Of a stretch of 63,142 bases of DNA, positions 1,949 through 55,353 are shown piece after piece. This DNA comes from an uncultured Candidatus Saccharibacteria bacterium (lineage in GTDB: Bacteria; Patescibacteriota; Minisyncoccia; Phycocordibacterales; CAIZLB01): assembly GCA_964520545.1 (NCBI GenBank), contig CAZFOD010000006.1, positions 1 to 63,142 on the forward strand, written 5' to 3'. How positions within the stretch are numbered: position 1 is the first letter of the stretch; each line of letters opens with the position of its first letter. The notes under the pieces were generated by a model. The model did no database searches. It saw only the letters and a program-made list of their open reading frames with translations, and had not been told where the DNA came from. The position numbers and the translations under genes are program-made.

Positions 1949-2034
1949 ATATATGATGAATTATCTTTTTTTATTTATAAAATTCTACGCGATAGCTGCT
2001 GGCAAAAAAAATCGGCCAGCTGCCGTCGTTCGGG

Positions 2035-2107
2035 TGCGAGTAGTAGGATTCGAACCTACGACCCCATCAGTATCAGTGATGTGCTCTACCAACTGAGCTA
2101 TACTCGC
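2035..2107 (-). tRNA. tRNA-Ile (anticodon GAU)
   Basis: 73-nt cloverleaf read by eye: acceptor GCGAGTA/TACTCGC, D-arm GCTC..GAGC, anticodon stem CATCA/TGATG with loop CTGATAC, T-arm GTAGG TTCGAAT CCTAC. No encoded CCA. Confidence 0.9.
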
Positions 2108-2156
2108 ATATCTATTTGTGTGGGTACTACCTTACCAAAAAACGAGCTAAAAAGAA

Positions 2157-3127: not shown

Positions 3128-6100
3128 TTATTCCGCTGATTCTGTGGGAGCAGGGCTAACAGTTGGTATTACTTCTTGAGGCGGGGTTACTACTTCTGCT
3201 GCAGACTCTGTCGTCGGAACTATTTCTGTATTACCTGAACTATCTACATCTACCACCTCAACAATTGAAACCTCTACACTCAATGCTGTGTCGGCAGGCG
3301 TAGCGGGGGTAATAGTTTCGAGAATAACACTTGAGCTAGCTGAATCAGATACTGCCGATGACTCAACAATAGGAGCCTCCATAACATCAACTAGAACTGT
3401 TGTTGTTGTTGTAGTGGTGGTAGCAGCGTTATCCACAACAATCTGTTCTGTTTTATTTTTAGAATTATAAACCTTAACGAAGAACCAATCGAATGAAATA
3501 TCCTCCGTAAAAGGTTTCGCAACTCGCACCACAAAACCTTGCCCTGTTTTCTTTTCAGCCACATAAAGAGGCACTTCGGTTACCGATGTTAGAGTAAGGT
3601 AAATACTTGAATGCGAATCAATTTGGCTATTTGAAATAAATATCTCTGTTTGACCAGCGGGCATCACACCAGATCCAGCAATCTGATTTTCACCACTTGG
3701 CAAGAAAAGATTTCCCCCTGGCAGAATTGTTAAGGTATCAACAAAGAGTTGTTTGATATTCGCAACAAGTGAGACAAGTTTGTTTGTGATAGTGATAGAA
3801 ACGTTATCAGCTTCGTTAATCACCGCTACCGCAATATCAGCAACACTCATTCTGGCCGCATCGATAAGCTGAGTCATTGTATCTTGTGTTTCTGGCTTGG
3901 TGATATCTGTCAGTTCAGACACTGTTTTTGCAGCATCTGTAATATCACTCCAATTGATTGTTTCCACCCCGATAAACACGGTCACCCTTGAGTCTTCCCC
4001 TTCAGCTCCGCTATATGAAGAAAGTGCACGTCCTACTACACGTCCAGGCTTAACCGCCTTTGCAGCGACACCCGGAGCGCTACCTGCGGTAATATAATCA
4101 CCAATTTTTATTGGACCATTTTCAAGAGAAACCTTCACAGGCACACGTCCAGCCAAAGCAATCGGTACAGCACGAGCACCGTCAATGTGCGCATCTTTTT
4201 GACTCAATCGGAGAGCAGGGTTCTCAGAATAAATACCTATAATATCTCTATCATTCTTTCCTACTGATTTTCTTACGAAGCCCTTTTCAGTTGTATCTAA
4301 ACTTACCAAATCTGTAGCAGCAAGCGCATCATCTCTCGTCGGGTAATCTTCAGCGAGGTCGTATGCACCCGTCATAGTATTCACGCCGTGACTAAACACG
4401 AACTTACCAGTACCTTGATTTCCGGTATTATTAAAAGCGGTTTCCTCTGCTTGAAATTCAATCCAGGCTTTATTAGCAAAACCGTTCTGAATACCATCCG
4501 CTTCATCAGAATTTGCAGCAAACTGAAGTGCATAGGACTCTGCCTCAGCACCACCATATGAATATACCTCAGCTGCAGTGGCCTTTGCAGAACCAACCCA
4601 GAGCTCATCATTGTACACGGTCATTGAATGCACACCAGTAATAGAGCTAGTAACACCTCCGAGCGCTCCCGCAGTAGAACTTGAAACCCTGCTCCATGTT
4701 GATCCCACATCAACCTTATATACTTCAGCAATACCAGTTGAATCCACCGTACCGACAAACAAATCATCATTATAGACTGACATCGCACCGATTTGGTCGA
4801 TACCGGTCTGGGCGCCAACGTCTTCTGCAATAATACCTGCGGTGGAGCTCGAAATAGCTTGCCAGTTTGTACCAGTGCTCGGTGGAACTCCATCCCACTT
4901 AACGACACGGGCCGTACCAGCACCATCATTGATACCCGCGTAAAGTCGACCGTTATATACAGCAAGGGTTGTTACGTTGTCAACAGCTGTAATGGTACTA
5001 GCGATACCCAAGGAGTTGGTACCTGAGTATGTACCCGCTGTACCGAGGATCGTGAAGCCGGTTCCCGATGTTCCTTGACCGTCATATCTATAAATACCTC
5101 CTGCATTTGTCTCACTCGTACCGATGTACAAATACCCGTTTAAGGTGGCCATGGCACTTACTCTATCCACATTGGCTGTAGCGCCAATAGTACCAGCGTT
5201 TGCAGGAATGTTACTCACCTTTGTCCAGGAAGCCGCCGAAGGGGTTGTCGTTCCATTGTATCTATAAACCTCCGCTCCGTTCGTTTTTGCAGTACCAATA
5301 TATAGAGACCCGCCAAACACGGTCATCGCCGACACTTCATTTATTGCAGTTGTAGTACCATTTCCTCCAATAGCACCCGCGGTCGAGCTCGAAATTCTCG
5401 TCCATACACTGTTTCCATCATATCGATATACTTCAGCGGCGCCCGTTTCTTTTGTACCAAGATACAATTGCCCATTATAAATATTCATTGTCGAAATACC
5501 GTCGATATTCGCAGTGCCTCCGCTAGCAACAGTACCCGCTGTTGCATTCGAAACCTTTGTCCAATTAGTGCCTCCATCATATCGGTACACTTCAGCTGCG
5601 TTAGCTTTTGTTGTTCCAACATACACAGAACCGTTGAATACTGCCATAGCGGTTGTAGAAGCAATTGAAGCAGTGTCGCCCGTATCAATTGTTCCAGCCG
5701 TACCACTTGACCGAACCGTCCAAACAGGAGCACTGTCAGGTTTTGCTCCGATTAAAATATTTCCAGCGACATGCAATTTTTCTGACGGAGATGTAGTACC
5801 AATTCCAATATTACCATTTACATCAATTCGCATTCTCTCATTCGCAGCCAAAGTTCCACCAGTGTGAAATTTAATAACGCCACTTGAAGAGGTTGTAGCT
5901 GTACCAATGGCGAGGGCTGTTGACTGCGAATATAAATAAGCATCATTCGCCCCTGTTATGGTAAAGGCTGGATCATTATATGTAGAACTATTAATTCCAA
6001 GGTCAACGAAATAACTAGTATCATTACCGTTATCCGCAGTTGCCACAAAATCCGTAGACGCTGATGTTGAGGCAGACTTATTCTGCGCCACTACCTGCAT

Positions 6101-50529: not shown

Positions 50530-53500
50530 TTACTCCCGACCTTTCACGATGGCGATCTTTGCTGAGAGCCCATCAGCGTGTATTTCTTCTGCCTCAACTG
50601 AGCCGTACACAATTGACGTAGCCTGCACAGCTTTTGTGAACATTGCACTATGAGCATCAATTACATTCTTTCCGACTGAATCAGTCTCTATATTCAAGAC
50701 GATTTCGTCTGAAGGAGAAAGCCCAGCATTTTTACGCATCTCTTGCACAGCACGCATTAATTCTCGTACCTGTCCTTCAGATTTAAGTTCTGGTGTTATA
50801 TTCAGGTCAATTGCTATTACATCGCCTTTCTCTACTTTTTTAACATTAAGTTCATCTGCAATGATTGCAGCTAATTCATCAGACAATGTTACCGAAGCAT
50901 CATATGTGAAGCTAGAGAGTGGCTGTCGAACTTTAATACCAGCCTTTGATCGTAGTGCGAGACCAGCTTCAACTAATTTACGTGCAGTAGACATTGAATC
51001 AAGAAGTACTCCGTCAACCTCACCTGGCTCTGGCCAATCTTCCAAATGAACACTCAAGGCAGCATTAGATGGCTTTACCTTCTGATATATTTCTTCAGCT
51101 ATAAATGGTACAAATGGAGCCATTACTTTCGCAAGTGTAGCTAAAACATATTGAGTTGTTGCAAGCGCTTCCCGCTTATCCCCTTCATCATCTCCCTTAA
51201 ATCGATCTCTTGATCGGCGAAGATACCAAGTTGAAAGTTCATCAATGAAATCTGCGATTGGACGTGCTGCCTTATCGAGCTGATATGCATCAAGTGCGTT
51301 TGTGACATCAGAGATGAGTTTATTTAACTCAAAAACTATCCACTTATCAAGCACATGGTTATTCTTTGGTAATGCTCCGTCCGACACAACTCCTGTAGCG
51401 TAGGTATTGTAAAACACATATACGTTTTCTAACCTGTTAAACAATTTCTTATTGACTTCATCTAGTGATTTCTCTGAAAAAGCTACCTCTTCTCCGTGTA
51501 CAGCAGGTGATGATATGAGGAAATACCGGAGCGCATCAGCACCGTACTTTTCTACCGTTGGTAAAAGATCGGGGTAGTTGTTAAGACTCTTACTCATCTT
51601 GCGCCCATCCTCAGCAAGAATGAGACCGTTCACGATTACGTTCTTGTATGCTGACTTATCAAAAAGAGCCTTAGAGAGATTAAGGAGTGAATAAAACCAA
51701 CCTCTGGTCTGGTCGAGTCCTTCAGCGATAAAGTCCGCAGGAAAGATTGCATTATTCTCAGCAAGCATCTCTTCTTTGTGCTCGAATGGATAATGATTCT
51801 GTGCGAAGGACATTGATCCTGAGTCATACCAAACATCAAACACCTCTGGTACACGTCGCATAACTTCACCAGTATCATTTTTCCATGTCACTGCATCAAT
51901 ATATGGGCGATGGAGATCGAGTTCAAAACTTTCATTACATGGAAGTGGTACAAAATCACAAACATGAACAGATGCTGTTGGATCAGATACGTCAGCCCAA
52001 CCGTATCGAGTGAGATCCCTCATTGTTATTCCCTTCGCCACGTTAAGTGACAGTCGAAGTGGAAGACCATGAGTAACAACAAGAACCCTCGCACCTTTAT
52101 GTTTAGTTTCAATGTCATAAAAGAATTCCGCTATTCTCTTTTTTACATCTTCGACAGACTCTCCGTTAGGCACAGGTTTGTATAGGTGATCAAAAAGATT
52201 GTTGAAATAATTAGTTCGGCTACCCCAGTCGCTACCGTCAAAATCACCCGCGTTAATCTCTCGGAGACGCTTATCAAAAATAATACTGGTCTTTTCATAG
52301 CCAATAACTCCAGCTACAATCTCTGCTGTTTCCTTGGTACGTGAAAAGTCTGATGCATAAATGACTACATTTTCTACAGGACCAAGTCGAGCCTTCATAG
52401 CCTCAGCACTTACTCGCACCTCTTCCTTGCCCGCATCAGTAAGCGTAGATTCATCTAGCTTCTTCGAACTTATTGTATTTGTCAGGTTGCATGTTGCCTG
52501 TCCGTGACGCATAACAAAGAATTCATTTCCTCTTCCATCCTTCCTTATTTTATCCTTGAGTTCCTCAACTGAACTTATGAATTCTGTCTTTCCTGTCTTT
52601 TCCCCTTTCCACACAGGTATTGGTGATCCCCAATATCGAGAACGAGATACAGCCCAGTCTCGAGCACCTTCAAGCCATTTACCGAATCGTCCTTCTCCAA
52701 TTTCTTTTGGTACCCACGAGATTTTCTTGTTTTCTTCAACGAGTCTATCCTTCAAATCTGTAATCTTCACGAACCATGATGAAGTTGCATAGTTAAGAAG
52801 CGGTGTATTACATCGCCAACAATGAGGATATGAGTGGATATATTTCTCTTTCTTAAAAAGAGCAATGTACTCCTCTCGATCGCCATGCTTGTGAGCTAAA
52901 TATTTAATTATCTCAATATCACCTTTCTGGTGGTCATCGATTGGTTTTGCTGACTGTCCAGCAAAATCAGTCACAGCCGGAACGAAAAGTCCGTCAGTTC
53001 CAACATGGTGTATGACAGGAAGATTTTCCCTTCGTGCCAAGTTCATGTCATCTTCCCCATACGCTGGAGCAATATGGACAATTCCTGTACCGTCTTCAGC
53101 AGTTACAAAGTCGCCAGCATATATTTTCCATGCATTGTCTCTCCGATCCTCATTGTCGCCGACCATGGTTCCTTTTACTGCGTAATATGGAAATACAGGT
53201 AGATATGACTTCCCTACTAAAGCAGATCCTTTGGCTTCTTCTAAAATCTTTACTCCCTCCACTGTCCCAAAAACTTTTTCAATCAATCCACGAGTTACCC
53301 AATATTTGGAATTTTCAAATTCCACTTTTACATAGTCGAGATCTGCATTAACAGCAAGTGCAACATTTCCAGGCAGAGTCCATGGTGTTGTAGTCCACGC
53401 TAATACATATGTACCGAGTTCATCTTTTAATTCAAACTTTACGAACGCAGAAATATCCGTTATATCCTTGTACCCCTGCGCAACTTCAAAGTTAGAAAGT

Positions 53501-54090
53501 GATGTTCCGCATCGAGGACAGAATGGCATAACTTTGTAGCTTTCATACACCAAACCTTTTTTGTTAAGTTCGGAGAAAGACCACATAACAGATTCCATGT
53601 ATGAGGCATCCATAGTGCGATAGTCATTGTCCATATCCACCCATCTACCCAATCGAGGAATGATTTGTTTCCACTCATCTGCATACGTAAGTACACTCTC
53701 ACGTGCCTCCTTGTTAAACTTCCCGACACCAATCTCCTCAATATCTTTCTTGTTCTTGAGACCTAGTTTCTTTTCGATCAAGTTCTCAATTGGTAGACCG
53801 TGACAGTCCCATCCCCACCGACGAGGTACATTGTATCCGCGCATCGTCTTGTATCGAGGGATGGCATCTTTAACAGTTGTTGGTAACACATGTCCGTAGT
53901 GAGGTAGGCCTGTTGCGTATGGTGGACCATCATAAAATACAAAATTGCCCTTCGGCGAAGGCTTGTTCAAACTCTTCTGGAATATGTCGTTCTCTTTCCA
54001 GAATGCTAGGATCCTGTTTTCTCGTTCGTGCATGGTTGAAACTTCTAGTAGCAACAAATATAGCCACTGTTTGTAGGCATATAGTAGCAT
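50530..54090 (-). CDS. ileS: isoleucyl-tRNA synthetase (type 2) with an inserted histidine-phosphatase domain; likely start M20 at 54033
   Basis: PPYATGLPHYGH (HIGH), the editing domain TTTPWTLPGN, WAVSRSRYWGSPIPVW, DVWYDSGS and KMSKSL. About 195 extra residues between PIPVW and DLHRPYID carry RHG...R...E...H motifs. Confidence 0.95.
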   Translation of the reverse strand: MLLYAYKQWLYLLLLEVSTMHERENRILAFWKENDIFQKSLNKPSPKGNFVFYDGPPYATGLPHYGHVLPTTVKDAIPRYKTMRGYNVPRRWGWDCHGLPIENLIEKKLGLKNKKDIEEIGVGKFNKEARESVLTYADEWKQIIPRLGRWVDMDNDYRTMDASYMESVMWSFSELNKKGLVYESYKVMPFCPRCGTSLSNFEVAQGYKDITDISAFVKFELKDELGTYVLAWTTTPWTLPGNVALAVNADLDYVKVEFENSKYWVTRGLIEKVFGTVEGVKILEEAKGSALVGKSYLPVFPYYAVKGTMVGDNEDRRDNAWKIYAGDFVTAEDGTGIVHIAPAYGEDDMNLARRENLPVIHHVGTDGLFVPAVTDFAGQSAKPIDDHQKGDIEIIKYLAHKHGDREEYIALFKKEKYIHSYPHCWRCNTPLLNYATSSWFVKITDLKDRLVEENKKISWVPKEIGEGRFGKWLEGARDWAVSRSRYWGSPIPVWKGEKTGKTEFISSVEELKDKIRKDGRGNEFFVMRHGQATCNLTNTISSKKLDESTLTDAGKEEVRVSAEAMKARLGPVENVVIYASDFSRTKETAEIVAGVIGYEKTSIIFDKRLREINAGDFDGSDWGSRTNYFNNLFDHLYKPVPNGESVEDVKKRIAEFFYDIETKHKGARVLVVTHGLPLRLSLNVAKGITMRDLTRYGWADVSDPTASVHVCDFVPLPCNESFELDLHRPYIDAVTWKNDTGEVMRRVPEVFDVWYDSGSMSFAQNHYPFEHKEEMLAENNAIFPADFIAEGLDQTRGWFYSLLNLSKALFDKSAYKNVIVNGLILAEDGRKMSKSLNNYPDLLPTVEKYGADALRYFLISSPAVHGEEVAFSEKSLDEVNKKLFNRLENVYVFYNTYATGVVSDGALPKNNHVLDKWIVFELNKLISDVTNALDAYQLDKAARPIADFIDELSTWYLRRSRDRFKGDDEGDKREALATTQYVLATLAKVMAPFVPFIAEEIYQKVKPSNAALSVHLEDWPEPGEVDGVLLDSMSTARKLVEAGLALRSKAGIKVRQPLSSFTYDASVTLSDELAAIIADELNVKKVEKGDVIAIDLNITPELKSEGQVRELMRAVQEMRKNAGLSPSDEIVLNIETDSVGKNVIDAHSAMFTKAVQATSIVYGSVEAEEIHADGLSAKIAIVKGRE

Positions 54091-54135: not shown

Positions 54136-54154
54136 CTGGATTAGAACTGCCCCC

Positions 54155-54652
54155 CTAGAATTGAAAGGCGAGTTCTTCACTGACTGTGTGGGGGAGCGTT
54201 TCGAGAGGAGATGTTTTGAGTTGTTCCCCTTCATCAAGCGGTGGTAGCTCCGGCGGCTGACGGAAGTCAAAATACCGGATCATCAACACGGCACCGTTTG
54301 GCAACCGGAGGTACAGCGCCCCATCTTTGCCGACTTCGGCGCTGACACTTGGTTTCTTTGAATCCTGCTCTGTGGAAACAGCGTGACGTTTCATCCCGAC
54401 AAGACTCACTTCTTCTCTGTCTCCGAGAGGTTCTTCATCACGAGCCTCATCGCCGGAGGGGGTGTCATCCTCAGCGTTCACAGCACTCGGTCGGTCGTAA
54501 TTAAACACCATCTGCATAAAACCAACCCGAGTGTAAACCGAACTTGTCGGTGACGATGTGCGGAGAAGATCTCCGAAGAACGAATCGAGGGCGTACATCA
54601 GCGTACACACCGATACGGTCGCCGCGAATATAACTGCAACTGGATTTTTCAT
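54155..54652 (-). CDS. secreted orphan protein (165 aa) in a G+C-rich cassette
   Basis: Signal-like N-terminus (MKNPVAVIFAATVSVCTLMYA), an acidic middle, and its own terminator. Confidence 0.55.
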   Translation of the reverse strand: MKNPVAVIFAATVSVCTLMYALDSFFGDLLRTSSPTSSVYTRVGFMQMVFNYDRPSAVNAEDDTPSGDEARDEEPLGDREEVSLVGMKRHAVSTEQDSKKPSVSAEVGKDGALYLRLPNGAVLMIRYFDFRQPPELPPLDEGEQLKTSPLETLPHTVSEELAFQF

Positions 54653-54762
54653 GTGCTGGTTGTTGGGTTGCGTACGGAGAGGCTCTCCTCTTCGGACTGG
54701 ATTTACTGGACTCTATTGAGAAGCCTAGCTCTGCCCCCTGACGTTGTCAATCAAAAAGAAAT

Positions 54763-54797
54763 CTAGCCTCCCTCACGCAGGGCATGAGGGAGGCTAG
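54763..54797 (-). terminator. rho-independent terminator after ORF 54817..55353
   Basis: A perfect 13-bp stem CTAGCCTCCCTCA / TGAGGGAGGCTAG followed by ATTTCTTTTTG on the minus strand. Confidence 0.65.
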
Positions 54798-54816
54798 TGT
54801 TTTTCATGATGACCGA

Positions 54817-55353
54817 CTACGAATGCCGACAACCGTATCGGCTCCCCATGCCACCGCCAGTGCTGAAGGCGATAATGCGGGGCAACGAGGATGGGACAGG
54901 CTTAATCTTCTTGCCAACGACTTGAAACTGCGGGGCGGGAGTGACCTTCGCCGGCGCGTCACGCTTTTGTTTGGGCGGGTCAGACAAGAGGCGAAAGATG
55001 CCAATCGAAGACTTCTGCGTGGGGGTCTTGGGCAAAACATTTTTCTGCCAATCTGGGTGCGGCACGACTGGCGGATCTGAAACGCCGAGATTGTCTCGCG
55101 CGATGCATTGGGCCAGCTGCCTCTTCGCACGCACGAGATCCGGTGTCATTCCGGGAACTGCATGGATGTTGGAATCATCCGTGCCGACTAACGGGTCTAT
55201 GTACTTCATGGTATGGGACTCTAGTTTGGTTGTTCTTGGTTTTCTCAACCCACATGCGTTTTCAAACGCATACCTTCTGGACCAAACCATATCATGCGTA
55301 AATATATGCGTCAACATCATCTTCTTGTAACATGGTAGTAGTTCAGACGTCAT
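54817..55353 (-). CDS. orphan protein in a G+C-rich cassette (178-aa ORF; alternative start MKYIDPL at 55209 gives 130 aa)
   Basis: Longest of several overlapping ORFs here and the only one followed by a matching terminator. Pro/Lys-rich with no motif recognised. Confidence 0.4.
   Translation of the reverse strand: MTSELLPCYKKMMLTHIFTHDMVWSRRYAFENACGLRKPRTTKLESHTMKYIDPLVGTDDSNIHAVPGMTPDLVRAKRQLAQCIARDNLGVSDPPVVPHPDWQKNVLPKTPTQKSSIGIFRLLSDPPKQKRDAPAKVTPAPQFQVVGKKIKPVPSSLPRIIAFSTGGGMGSRYGCRHS

Follow-up and report, generated by a model that had tools for sequence, protein, structure and literature searches.

The ileS gene of the 63,142-nucleotide stretch of DNA analysed here (the window) encodes a type-2 isoleucyl-tRNA synthetase (IleRS) with a histidine-phosphatase domain nested in its catalytic core, at the tip of the CP3 subdomain, within the second Rossmann-fold segment and between its halves. 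The insert corresponds to a whole free-standing phosphatase of ~190 aa, from first to last residue, and is joined to the synthetase by very short connectors of about 4-6 residues per side. The same insertion was found at no fewer than 134 separate loci, almost all of them from GTDB species representatives of Patescibacteria, and is present in the complete genomes CP179887.1, OZ246398.1 and OZ246416.1. The architecture appears not to have been described previously, as the initial sequence-only reading had supposed: no description of it was found in literature searches on phosphatase- or PGM-carrying IleRS, on aaRS insertions in Patescibacteria and on ValRS-PGM fusions, phosphatases are absent from the AARS Online domain catalogue, and no IleRS entry with such an insert was found in the PDB. 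Its wide occurrence in Patescibacteria lowers the uniqueness of the window protein, yet does not make the insertion a described feature.

The host synthetase

The assignment of the host to type-2 IleRS, first made from its motifs, is borne out by profile, alignment and structural comparisons. TIGR00392 (ileS) scored 897.4 bits (cutoff 621.4), its match falling into two segments that flank the insert, and the best PDB sequence matches were 1ILE, 8C8U and the yeast/Candida IleRS at ~700 bits, versus ~300 bits for the type-1 enzyme 1FFY. The full-length model superposes on IleRS2 structures with TM scores of 0.8-0.9 (Foldseek), and all domains and motifs align end to end with T. thermophilus IleRS (1ILE) and Priestia megaterium IleRS2 (8C8U/8C8V). 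The window protein contains HYGH (aa 64-67), TTTPWTLPGN, GTGIVH and KMSKS (aa 831-835), and the corresponding HxGH, TTTPWT, GTGxVH and KMSKS motifs are invariant among 67 aligned homologues; the anticodon-binding domain PF08264 spans aa 915-1059 and PF19302 matches at the C-terminus. Judged by these signatures, the synthetase half would be a normal, editing-competent type-2 IleRS. Two special identities were rejected, namely a MupA/MupB mupirocin-resistance IleRS (747-766 against an 'exception' cutoff of 1900) and NF040702, the IleRS + GNAT family (340 vs 1999 bits). The latter shows that curators already recognise a category of IleRS with an additional catalytic domain, there a GNAT acetyltransferase; no paper on an IleRS with a GNAT domain was found.

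The open reading frame probably starts upstream of the true protein. Homologues and 1ILE align only from ~aa 20-23 onward, residues 1-20 have pLDDT values of 55-61 in the full-length AF2 model, and codons 1-19 show zero substitutions relative to a closely related locus (L069), though dS is ~0.5 elsewhere. The true IleRS start is probably M20 (window 54033) and not the upstream ATG, and the 19 codons before it are probably 5' leader or promoter sequence. A GC-rich island located upstream of ileS gave no match in Rfam.

Table 1. Features of the ileS gene and its nested phosphatase, in window coordinates.
Feature	Position	Strand	Basis or remark
Whole ileS ORF (type-2 IleRS with nested histidine-phosphatase domain)	50530..54090	-	1186 aa + stop, uninterrupted
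Probable true start codon, M20	54031..54033	-	Homologue alignment, pLDDT, substitution pattern
IleRS N-terminal part, aa 20-494	52609..54033	-	First Rossmann half, CP1 editing domain, CP2, strand ending WGSPIPVW
HYGH motif	53890-53901	-	In IleRS N-terminal part
CP3 N-terminal arm, aa 495-517, KGEKTGKTEFISSVEELKDKIRK	52540..52608	-	Alignment; CP3 definition from PMC7191050
Inserted histidine-phosphatase (His_Phos_1, branch 1), aa 518-716	51943..52539	-	Profile search, alignment, model
R528-H529 codons, RHG motif	52504..52509	-	H529 is the predicted phospho-accepting nucleophile; invariant 121/121
R584, second phosphate-binding arginine	52339..52341	-	Invariant
E611, predicted general acid/base	52258..52260	-	Invariant 121/121
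H674, second catalytic histidine	52069..52071	-	Invariant
CP3 C-terminal arm, aa 717-750, PCNESFELDLHRPYIDAVTWKNDTGEVMRRVPEV	51841..51942	-	Alignment
IleRS C-terminal part, aa 751-1186	50533..51840	-	Second Rossmann half, VFDVWYDSG, anticodon-binding domain, DUF5915 type-2 C-terminal domain
KMSKS motif	51586-51600	-	In IleRS C-terminal part

Site and boundaries of the insert

The sequence-only reading had proposed a full histidine-phosphatase domain, with all its catalytic signatures, inside the synthetase core and not in a neighbouring gene. In a Pfam search of the whole, continuous ORF, tRNA-synt_1 was indeed split into two stretches with His_Phos_1 (PF00300) between them at aa 525-699 (E=1.2e-30; 107 bits, gathering score 21.7); the segment 51946-52533 alone (196 aa) gave E=5.6e-32, the PF00300 scores ranging from 107 to 111 bits. 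The four motifs on which the proposal was based lie at FFVMRHGQ (aa 524-531), ASDFSRTKETAEIV (579-592), LREINAGDFDG (609-619) and VLVVTHGLPLR (669-679). In the alignment to 1ILE, residues 23-517 of the window protein correspond to 13-482 and residues 724-1052 to 488-821, so that ~200-205 residues stand in place of a linker of ~5 residues. Known IleRS2 enzymes have at this point a ~5-residue loop, which in T. thermophilus lies within a zinc knuckle, whereas the window protein has the ~200-aa phosphatase. The CxxC half of the zinc knuckle on the N-terminal arm of CP3 is carried by 28 members of the 121-sequence set formed by the window protein and its 120 best homologues; in the window protein these cysteines are lost.

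The full-length AF2 model has a pLDDT of 90.3 and a pTM of 0.83, with connectors at pLDDT >=85 and helix 508-518 leading straight into strand 523-528, and the phosphatase domain modelled alone reached a pLDDT of 95.4, a confident prediction. Among the CP elements of IleRS, CP3 varies most in structure, and in the Candida enzyme it is located on the side opposite CP2 (PMC7191050); by analogy, the phosphatase pocket may face away from the tRNA acceptor stem. A precedent for a hydrolytic domain nested in the Rossmann fold through two short connectors is provided by the CP1 editing domain of IleRS, ValRS and LeuRS (PMC7191050). CP1, however, is universal and ancient and cleaves mischarged aminoacyl-tRNA or adenylate, whereas the present insert occurs in certain lineages only, lies in CP3 and is a member of a phosphomonoesterase superfamily with no relation to CP1.

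That the insert is an artefact, whether of chimeric assembly, of a frameshifted neighbour gene or of an intein-like element left unspliced, is refuted by the data; nothing was found in favour of this idea, which was considered solely on account of the window being a metagenome-type contig. The ORF is unbroken, GC content is even across the insert (0.40-0.43), and all 120 best database homologues, drawn from independent NCBI, JGI, ENA and Logan assemblies and extending down to 52% identity, are IleRS with the insert; the identical architecture is shared by no fewer than 134 loci and by over 120 protein clusters of independent projects. A 96%-identical copy on an assembly of another sample has the identical in-frame insert, and codon-level purifying selection runs across the junctions in this comparison. 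Misassembly and frameshift are thereby excluded. No Hint-family domain was matched in Pfam, and the junction residues are D518 and P717, not the Cys, Ser or Thr required for splicing.

Catalytic residues, selection and subfamily

The residues R528, H529, R584, E611 and H674 are invariant in the window protein and its 120 best homologues (121/121). In a wider set of 201 IleRS-embedded copies, R528-H529 is kept in 198, the other three being gapped there, and the position of E611 is occupied by E in 199 and D in two; the catalytic set is intact in 198 of these 201 copies and in 25 of 26 ValRS-embedded copies, all tandem copies included. Against the 96%-identical copy (dS ~0.5), dN/dS was 0.041 for the insert and 0.035 and 0.055 for the two synthetase flanks; purifying selection on the insert is as strong as on the synthetase body. 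The invariant catalytic residues and this equal constraint suggest that the phosphatase is probably active, in line with what had first been surmised from its motifs. Residues lining the presumed substrate pocket vary among lineages, and two loci (L056 and L064) encode cap-deleted variants.

The initial label, 'PGAM-like' or 'mutase-type', needs narrowing, the insert falling on the PhoE/PspA/CobC-like phosphatase side of the superfamily. Foldseek searches with the domain model returned PspA, PhoE, Rv2419c, dPGM and TIGAR at probability 1.0 and TM ~0.7, with HFP also among the nearest at TM ~0.7; the model is closest to PhoE and PspA. The best PDB sequence match was PhoE (YhfR) of Geobacillus stearothermophilus (1EBB/1H2E; E=3e-15, ~30% identity, TM ~0.7), with which the insert has in common the fold, the ~200-aa size and the catalytic set. 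The catalytic Glu of PhoE is followed by the phosphatase-type motif LREixxGdWEG, and that of the insert similarly by LREixxGxFxG. PhoE, PspA (4IJ5/4IJ6), HFP (9MMH) and Rv2419c are free-standing soluble proteins, whereas the insert is nested or gene-coupled. No curated subfamily model was passed at NCBIfam cutoffs: CobC (TIGR03162) scored 75.6 against 162.9, PspA (NF045917) 65 against 350, GpmB (NF002901) 59.8 against 261, dPGM (TIGR01258) 31-37 bits against 81.7, and dPGM_arch (NF038349) 63-66 bits against 225. The best NCBIfam match, the RNase H/acid phosphatase PRK07238 (Rv2228c/SCO2299 type; E=8e-22, but 78 vs a cutoff of 326), likewise joins a branch-1 phosphatase to a nucleic-acid enzyme, although as an end-to-end fusion with RNase H, whereas the window phosphatase is nested in IleRS. 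The dPGM substrate residues Y92, K100, R116/R117 and N186 (E. coli/S. pombe) are replaced by F/A/G/V, W/I/F, E/D (117 being only partly R/K) and L/G/D, and are not conserved among copies. From its sequence, the insert is probably a catalytically competent branch-1 phosphatase of the PhoE/PspA/CobC-like group, and would not be a phosphoglycerate mutase.

Distribution and gene context

The phosphatase is also found as a separate gene. In 38 related species, a free phosphatase gene of ~190 aa directly adjoins, or overlaps, the beginning of an ileS that lacks the insert, as part of a conserved ArgRS-HP-IleRS-RecO block, and among 61 patescibacterial species loci the free form lies directly before ileS in 38 and the inserted form occurs in 18. 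The distance to the insert-free ileS is -10 to +10 nt for four free His_Phos genes (P0170, P0162, P0184 and P0146), and the contigs of three of them also carry the upstream ArgRS gene; two of the six free-standing relatives checked (P0398 and P0190) do not adjoin ileS. The window itself has the order ArgRS...IleRS-RecO-DUF11-class II aaRS. A second free copy is retained nearby in only one insertion-type locus. Many 'free' matches came from contigs of <1 kb and are likely IleRS gene fragments, and context was therefore taken from long contigs only.

In a different patescibacterial group, the phosphatase occupies the topologically equivalent CP3 site of ValRS, and some enzymes carry 2-4 tandem phosphatase copies, on independent contigs. 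Among the 150 best representatives, the long multidomain hosts were all IleRS or ValRS, two shorter multidomain matches (P0214 and P0225) being left unclassified in this count. An alignment-based scan of genome contigs recovered three ValRS fusions; a single-sequence scan with the ValRS insert region recovered none, its patterns being too specific. No free phosphatase gene was present beside insert-free valS at the three loci L145-L147. A simple N-terminal HP-IleRS fusion was likewise absent among the 150 representatives and ~200 loci. Such a fusion could arise from the overlapping genes simply by losing a stop codon, whereas CP3 insertion, mechanistically harder, is common and recurs in ValRS; the position of the phosphatase in CP3 thus appears to be selected.

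In a neighbour-joining tree of the ~190-aa domain, ValRS inserts formed one main clade of 13, and IleRS inserts were interleaved with 'free' sequences, the deep branches being poorly separated. Insertion-type and adjacent-type lineages were also interleaved in a neighbour-joining tree of the IleRS body (60 bootstraps), in which most larger groupings had bootstrap values of 0.05-0.7 and a few smaller clades 0.9-1.0.

Possible functions of the nested phosphatase

We see about an even chance that the domain is an active phosphomonoesterase and a dedicated partner of the Ile- and Val-tRNA synthetases. A single polypeptide would then combine two enzymes, an editing-competent type-2 IleRS and a branch-1 histidine phosphatase which, by family precedent, would hydrolyse phosphomonoesters via a phospho-histidine on H529, with R528, R584 and H674 holding the phosphate and E611 donating a proton. 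The phosphatase would bind the Ile and Val synthetases physically, probably even when separately encoded, and its substrate may be a phosphorylated small molecule, a nucleotide or an RNA end tied to the reaction of these synthetases. Its support comes from the integrity of both active sites, the equal constraint on insert and synthetase, the linkage to ileS, the recurrence at CP3 of ValRS, the tandem arrays and the apparent selection of position. Several observations sit less easily with such a partnership. The copy number of 1-4 and the cap-deleted variants fit a precisely positioned catalytic role only loosely, pocket-residue variation is more typical of a broad-specificity phosphatase, adjacency within a synthetase-gene cluster could mean co-expression only, the two free relatives mentioned above lie away from ileS, and the pocket may, as noted, face away from the acceptor stem.

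It is tentatively suggested, as a possibility and not as the probable case, that the phosphatase constitutes a fourth catalytic activity of class Ia synthetases, coupled to aminoacylation and docked at CP3 either covalently or as a separate subunit. It would then remove phosphate from something entering or leaving the synthetic site. Candidates would be a phosphorylated tRNA terminus that is repaired ahead of charging; an antimetabolite, either a phosphorylated nucleotide or adenylate-like, that would otherwise poison IleRS or ValRS; pyrophosphate or a nucleotide by-product; or a phospho-residue put on the synthetase by a toxin kinase.

The rival explanation that survives best, itself rather unlikely in our estimate, is that of a broad-specificity metabolic phosphomonoesterase which was an operon neighbour of ileS and was later captured into a permissive CP3 loop, the essential and constitutively expressed synthetase ensuring that it is expressed and retained while the genome shrinks. 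Such a history accords with the small-molecule activities of its nearest solved relatives (PhoE, PspA, HFP and Rv2419c), with pocket-lining positions that differ between lineages, with one to four copies per enzyme, with the structural variability of CP3 in IleRS (PMC7191050), with the insert being an entire free protein, connectable at both ends through short linkers, and with the location of some free relatives away from ileS. It does not readily account for the linkage to ileS being kept over very divergent IleRS lineages, in genomes whose gene order is otherwise fluid, for the arrival of the same domain, in another lineage, at CP3 of ValRS, the closest paralogue, for the restriction of long multidomain hosts to IleRS and ValRS among the 150 best representatives (P0214 and P0225 unclassified), or for the lack of end-to-end fusions, the easiest to generate.

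There is a small probability that the domain is a non-hydrolytic module that binds a phosphorylated ligand and serves IleRS and ValRS in tRNA binding or allostery; the ligand could be the tRNA 5'-phosphate or a phospho-metabolite reporting the energy state. The strictly conserved residues are exactly the phosphate binders while the rest of the pocket is variable, cap-deleted variants persist, and the domain is predicted to be rigidly mounted on the catalytic domain. However, E611 as general acid and H529 as nucleophile, which binding alone would not need, are also invariant, and tandem arrays fit poorly with a single docking role. No branch-1 member is known to be non-catalytic while keeping its catalytic set complete.

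Slightly less probable still is a divergent dPGM that fills a gap in glycolysis and is linked to the synthetase for expression only. A PGM gap has been reported for some Parcubacteria, and a passage in Jaffe et al. was counted in favour of this proposal, as was membership of the same superfamily; one free relative (P0122, which may be a gene fragment) is labelled K15634/gpmB by one source. Enolase and two iPGM genes lie just upstream of insert-free valS at two loci (L145 and L147), and the ValRS-phosphatase locus L148 is without enolase and iPGM genes at that position. The window encodes pyruvate kinase, so that lower glycolysis is at least partly present. Against a mutase stand the failure of every curated dPGM model (TIGR01258 37 vs 81.7; dPGM_arch 65 vs 225), the replacement and variability of the mutase-specific substrate residues and the phosphatase-type motif after the catalytic Glu. 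An artefact of assembly or splicing, discussed above, has a negligible probability.

Significance

The aminoacyl-tRNA synthetases belong to the most thoroughly studied enzymes, yet modules added to them, whether for editing, tRNA binding or signalling, have repeatedly brought new biology to light. Patescibacteria (CPR) account for a large share of bacterial diversity and have minimal genomes thought to retain little that is dispensable. In these bacteria the tie between the phosphatase and a synthetase takes three forms, a translationally coupled gene upstream, a domain nested in IleRS and a domain nested in ValRS, and it spans well over a hundred species; three such arrangements are classic 'Rosetta-stone' evidence of a functional link. 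In automated annotation the fused genes are reduced to a 'class I tRNA ligase family protein' or a 'hypothetical protein', and genomes can consequently look as though they lack IleRS or ValRS. If the link is metabolic, a conserved phosphatase would be hidden in a synthetase and missed by metabolic reconstructions. If it is mechanistic, it would add a hitherto unrecognised step to the charging of tRNA or to the protection of that process, and, should the phosphatase be a fourth activity of these enzymes, a quality-control, repair or self-defence step in the translation of ultra-small symbiotic bacteria.

The nested domain in the window IleRS

The ileS ORF contains tRNA-synt_1 as two stretches, together with Anticodon_1 and DUF5915, and His_Phos_1 (PF00300) was detected between both tRNA-synt_1 stretches at aa 525-699 (E=1.2e-30, 107 bits; gathering score 21.7). 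The sequence-only reading had placed a complete histidine-phosphatase domain inside a type-2 IleRS, and this split of tRNA-synt_1 bears it out; the motifs and coordinates it quoted are exact, and the 196-aa segment it named, searched alone, matched His_Phos_1 with E=5.6e-32. The host is an IleRS by NCBIfam (TIGR00392, 897 bits vs a cutoff of 621) and, by all sequence tests applied, belongs to IleRS type 2. Alignment to the Thermus thermophilus IleRS (1ILE) paired residues 23-517 with 13-482 and 724-1052 with 488-821, so that ~205 residues stand in for a linker of ~5. Domain definitions from the Candida albicans IleRS put the insertion point in the CP3 connective-peptide subdomain, whose topology varies among IleRS structures and which bears a zinc motif in the T. 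thermophilus enzyme (PMC7191050). A CxxC...CxC pair flanking the insert is retained in 28 of 121 aligned sequences, consistent with a CP3 location having a zinc motif; the window protein lacks these cysteines. The GC content stays even over the length of the insert.

The full-length AlphaFold2 model of the window IleRS (pLDDT 90.3, pTM 0.83, every insert block >=85) superposes on IleRS2 structures with TM 0.8-0.9, and comparison of this model with known structures found the extra domain in no PDB entry. The insert is predicted to fold (pLDDT 95.4 when modelled alone) and has very short connectors, namely helix 508-518, four residues and strand 523-528. Its nearest structures are PspA, PhoE, HFP, Rv2419c, Rv3214 and dPGMs (TM ~0.7), and PhoE is the nearest solved protein by sequence (E=3e-15). 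By HMM match, catalytic set and fold, the insert is a member of branch 1 of the histidine phosphatase superfamily. Assignment as a dPGM, CobC, PspA or GpmB equivalog was rejected, since the insert misses the curated cutoffs and thus lies outside these families.

Codons 1-19 of the ileS ORF are probably untranslated, as homologues begin around M20 and the model has a pLDDT of 55-61 over this stretch. The corresponding 57 nt carry zero substitutions relative to the 96%-identical gene of an independent assembly (L069), despite a dS of ~0.5 over the remaining gene, suggesting that a promoter or leader element is conserved here. Elsewhere in the window, the adjoining 1394- and 519-aa ORFs gave zero Pfam matches at E<=1e-5.

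Features of the window discussed in the text
Feature	Coordinates	Strand	Remarks
tRNA-Ile(GAT)	2032-2108		normal
Large ORF, 1394 aa	3128-7312	-	adjoins 519-aa ORF
Large ORF, 519 aa	7309-8868	-	adjoins 1394-aa ORF
tRNA, atypical anticodon loop	21231-21303	-	two-base anticodon '(ca)' at position 35; identity undetermined by ARAGORN
ileS ORF (IleRS + nested phosphatase)	50530..54090	-	uninterrupted, 1186 aa
ileS codons 1-19	54034-54090
GC-rich island	54150-55350		~1.2 kb; GC 0.53-0.57 vs ~0.42 around; between ileS and TrhO-like rhodanese gene

Conservation and selection

PF00300 and IleRS domains occur together in 120/120 best database homologues, with identity from 96% down to 52% (NCBI, JGI, ENA and Logan assemblies), and the L069 gene has the same structure as that of the window. 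Between these two genes, omega (Nei-Gojobori) is 0.041 for the insert, 0.035 for the N-terminal and 0.055 for the C-terminal synthetase part, indicating that the insert is constrained as strongly as the essential enzyme. Across the 121 aligned sequences, R528, H529, G530, R584, E611 and H674 never vary and N535 is kept in 120, at a mean pairwise identity of 0.42 for the insert vs 0.65-0.68 for the Rossmann halves. The catalytic pentad is complete in 198 of 201 IleRS-embedded copies, the RHG segment being missing from the alignment in the other three, and in 25 of 26 ValRS-embedded copies, all tandem copies among them; Asp replaces the catalytic Glu in 2/201 IleRS-embedded copies. Together with the low omega, the invariant catalytic residues favour the earlier proposal of a probably active domain. 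The synthetase motifs HxGH, KMSKS, TTTPWT and GTGxVH are likewise invariant within the family, and the host should therefore be a working, editing-competent IleRS. As read from its residues, the single polypeptide is bifunctional, with both active sites intact and both under selection.

Shortened inserts were observed in the IleRS of Zambryskibacteria RIFCSPHIGHO2_01_FULL_46_25 (L056, 4579-7866) and of locus L064 (4516-7905). In both, the substrate 'cap' that links the catalytic Glu to the second His has lost ~30 residues, and the catalytic residues are kept; L064 reads LRD where others have LRE. These may be decaying domains or SixA-like minimal versions.

Distribution of the nested form

The insertion recurs in the IleRS of relatives, with at least 134 distinct embedded copies in Patescibacteria recovered by three scans of one-genome-per-species contigs. 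Named carriers include Nomura-, Zambryski-, Kaiser-, Portnoy-, Nealson-, Yanofsky-, Sung-, Terry-, Vogel-, Taylor-, Lipton-, Doudna- and Moranii-bacteria and 'Paceibacterota/Minisyncoccia', and two tandem domains are present in 5 of these loci. An exhaustive HMMER search with the insert only returned 8588 matches at E<=1e-3; among the 150 best, for which hosts were inspected, all long multidomain hosts were IleRS, with the domain in the same position, or ValRS, shorter multidomain matches such as P0214 (568 aa) and P0225 (387 aa) falling outside this tally.

The NCBI pipeline names insert-bearing IleRS and ValRS 'class I tRNA ligase family protein' or 'hypothetical protein' and gives insert-free relatives the specific synthetase name, so that genomes can seem to be without IleRS or ValRS in automated surveys. 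Many 'binchicken'/SRP-co-assembly MAGs (L005, L029, L078, L157 and others) are titled 'uncultured Candidatus Saccharibacteria', 'Gammaproteobacteria' or 'Peribacteria'; their IleRS/ValRS-phosphatase genes are otherwise hosted by named Parcubacteria/Paceibacterota-type lineages, in some cases with shared synteny (e.g. L078), and these taxon labels look unreliable.

The same domain is found in ValRS. P0215 scores 956 bits and P0268 1018 bits against the ValRS equivalog model, above its cutoff of 704, and in both proteins His_Phos_1 lies at ~aa 452-626. Alignment of P0215 to the T. thermophilus ValRS (1GAX; 3-448 with 2-423, 643-1066 with 440-859) places the domain between the halves of the ValRS CP3 zinc knuckle, topologically the same site as in IleRS. 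ValRS fusions are patchy and occur in a different part of Patescibacteria (Falkow-, Kuenen- and Uhrbacteria); the domain is present in ~20/120 best ValRS matches and in 3 species representatives, and near relatives of ~880 aa are without it. At two loci with insert-free valS (L145 1-3596, L147 1-2811), enolase and two tandem cofactor-independent PGM genes lie upstream, past a divergent DHH-like gene, and at the ValRS-phosphatase locus L148 unrelated genes occupy this place; the difference could be coincidence or a hint at PGM replacement.

Arrays of 2-4 tandem phosphatase domains were seen in P0175, P0240/P0393, P0264, P0130 and P0245 and at loci L202, L219 and L230. P0175 consists of a ValRS N-half followed by four phosphatase domains, which cluster together and thereby indicate lineage-specific duplication; the P0240 cluster includes a 1484-aa member, and P0264 (1468-1489 aa) was found on six contigs. 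The second copy of P0245 (1419 aa) seems to have a different location, past the KMSKS region and immediately before the anticodon-binding domain. Free ~445-aa proteins with two tandem His_Phos domains occur in Prochlorococcus single-cell genomes (L140, L142-L144, about 4400-5740), with 27-30% identity to the query and no adjacent ileS, showing that tandem duplication of this fold occurs outside synthetases too.

A free phosphatase gene beside ileS

Genomic context was read for free-standing close relatives on long contigs. The gene for P0170 (189 aa) precedes, by 1 nt, an ileS that encodes an insert-free IleRS of 931 aa, in a neighbourhood matching that of the window (ArgRS - [phosphatase] - IleRS - small ORF - RecO - DUF11/CLIPPER protein - class II aaRS). 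P0162 and its ileS overlap by 10 nt, P0184 is separated from its ileS by 1 nt and P0146 from the IleRS N-terminus by 10 nt; P0398 and P0190 are free phosphatases located away from ileS. Scanning with the four ileS-linked proteins as an alignment yielded 61 patescibacterial species loci. In 38 of them, a free phosphatase ORF of 186-213 aa (246 aa in one case) is followed directly by an insert-free ileS (930-1016 aa where the contig holds the complete gene); 18 have the nested form and about 4 a free copy without adjacent ileS. Among complete genomes, CP179887.1, OZ246398.1 and OZ246416.1 carry the fusion, and CP179888.1 and OZ246412.1 a free homologue together with its insert-free IleRS. By alignment, the nested segment equals the whole free protein, from ~4 residues ahead of the conserved Asn through the C-terminal Asn. 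Only one nested-type locus has an extra free copy nearby, so the nested and free states are complementary, and in a neighbour-joining tree of the IleRS body, with weak deep support, they interleave. No simple N-terminal phosphatase-IleRS fusion was found among representatives or loci. Starting from overlapping genes, losing one stop codon would suffice for such a fusion, whereas the nested arrangement is harder, yet common, and recurs in ValRS.

In the window, the GC-rich island occupies the site of the free phosphatase gene in adjacent-gene relatives. It contains two ORFs (165 and 178 aa) without Pfam matches, and gave no Rfam match; L069 has 165- and 162-aa ORFs in the corresponding interval.

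Function of the nested phosphatase

Branch-1 histidine phosphatases act through a transient phospho-histidine. On this family precedent, H529 would be transiently phosphorylated, the phosphate would be bound by R528, R584 and H674, and E611 would protonate the leaving group.

Members of this phosphatase subfamily persistently accompany ileS as a gene or sit inside IleRS/ValRS as a domain. The best explanation, to which we give about an even chance, is a dedicated partnership, in which the phosphatase probably associates physically with the Ile and Val synthetases and its place on CP3 was probably favoured by selection. This view draws on the genes being neighbours or fused, on the domain recurring at a single structural site in both of the closest class Ia paralogues, and on the lack of trivial end fusions. 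Tight mechanistic coupling is disfavoured by the variable copy number, the cap-deleted variants, the variation of pocket-lining residues and the description of CP3 as opposite CP2 (PMC7191050). Copy-number variation, together with the PhoE-like character of the insert, would also suit a passenger metabolic phosphatase caught in a permissive loop; we regard this as possible but doubtful, the association with IleRS and ValRS being specific and persistent. A non-hydrolytic phosphate reader or allosteric module is improbable given the invariant general acid and nucleophile. A divergent glycolytic PGM would accord with the absence of PGM noted in some Parcubacteria (Jaffe et al.) and with the enolase and two iPGM genes just upstream at insert-free valS loci and missing there at the ValRS-fusion locus, but it is likewise improbable: the insert fails every curated dPGM cutoff, and mutase-specific substrate residues are missing, their replacements not being conserved either. 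An artefact or intein is refuted.

Conceptual precedents are the CP1 editing domain, likewise a hydrolase and set within the same Rossmann fold, the NCBI curated 'IleRS with GNAT domain' family, a synthetase with an extra domain, and RNase H/acid-phosphatase fusions, the best NCBIfam match of the insert, far under cutoff; in none of them is a phosphatase joined to a synthetase. No published description of a phosphatase-bearing IleRS or ValRS was found in the literature searched, and the AARS Online domain catalogue has no phosphatase among its entries. The interpretation given by the sequence-only reading finds support and is extended considerably. In kind, the protein is a synthetase that has acquired an accessory catalytic domain; what distinguishes this family is its breadth, a second active site that is intact, and genetic linkage to the Ile and Val synthetases along three independent lines.
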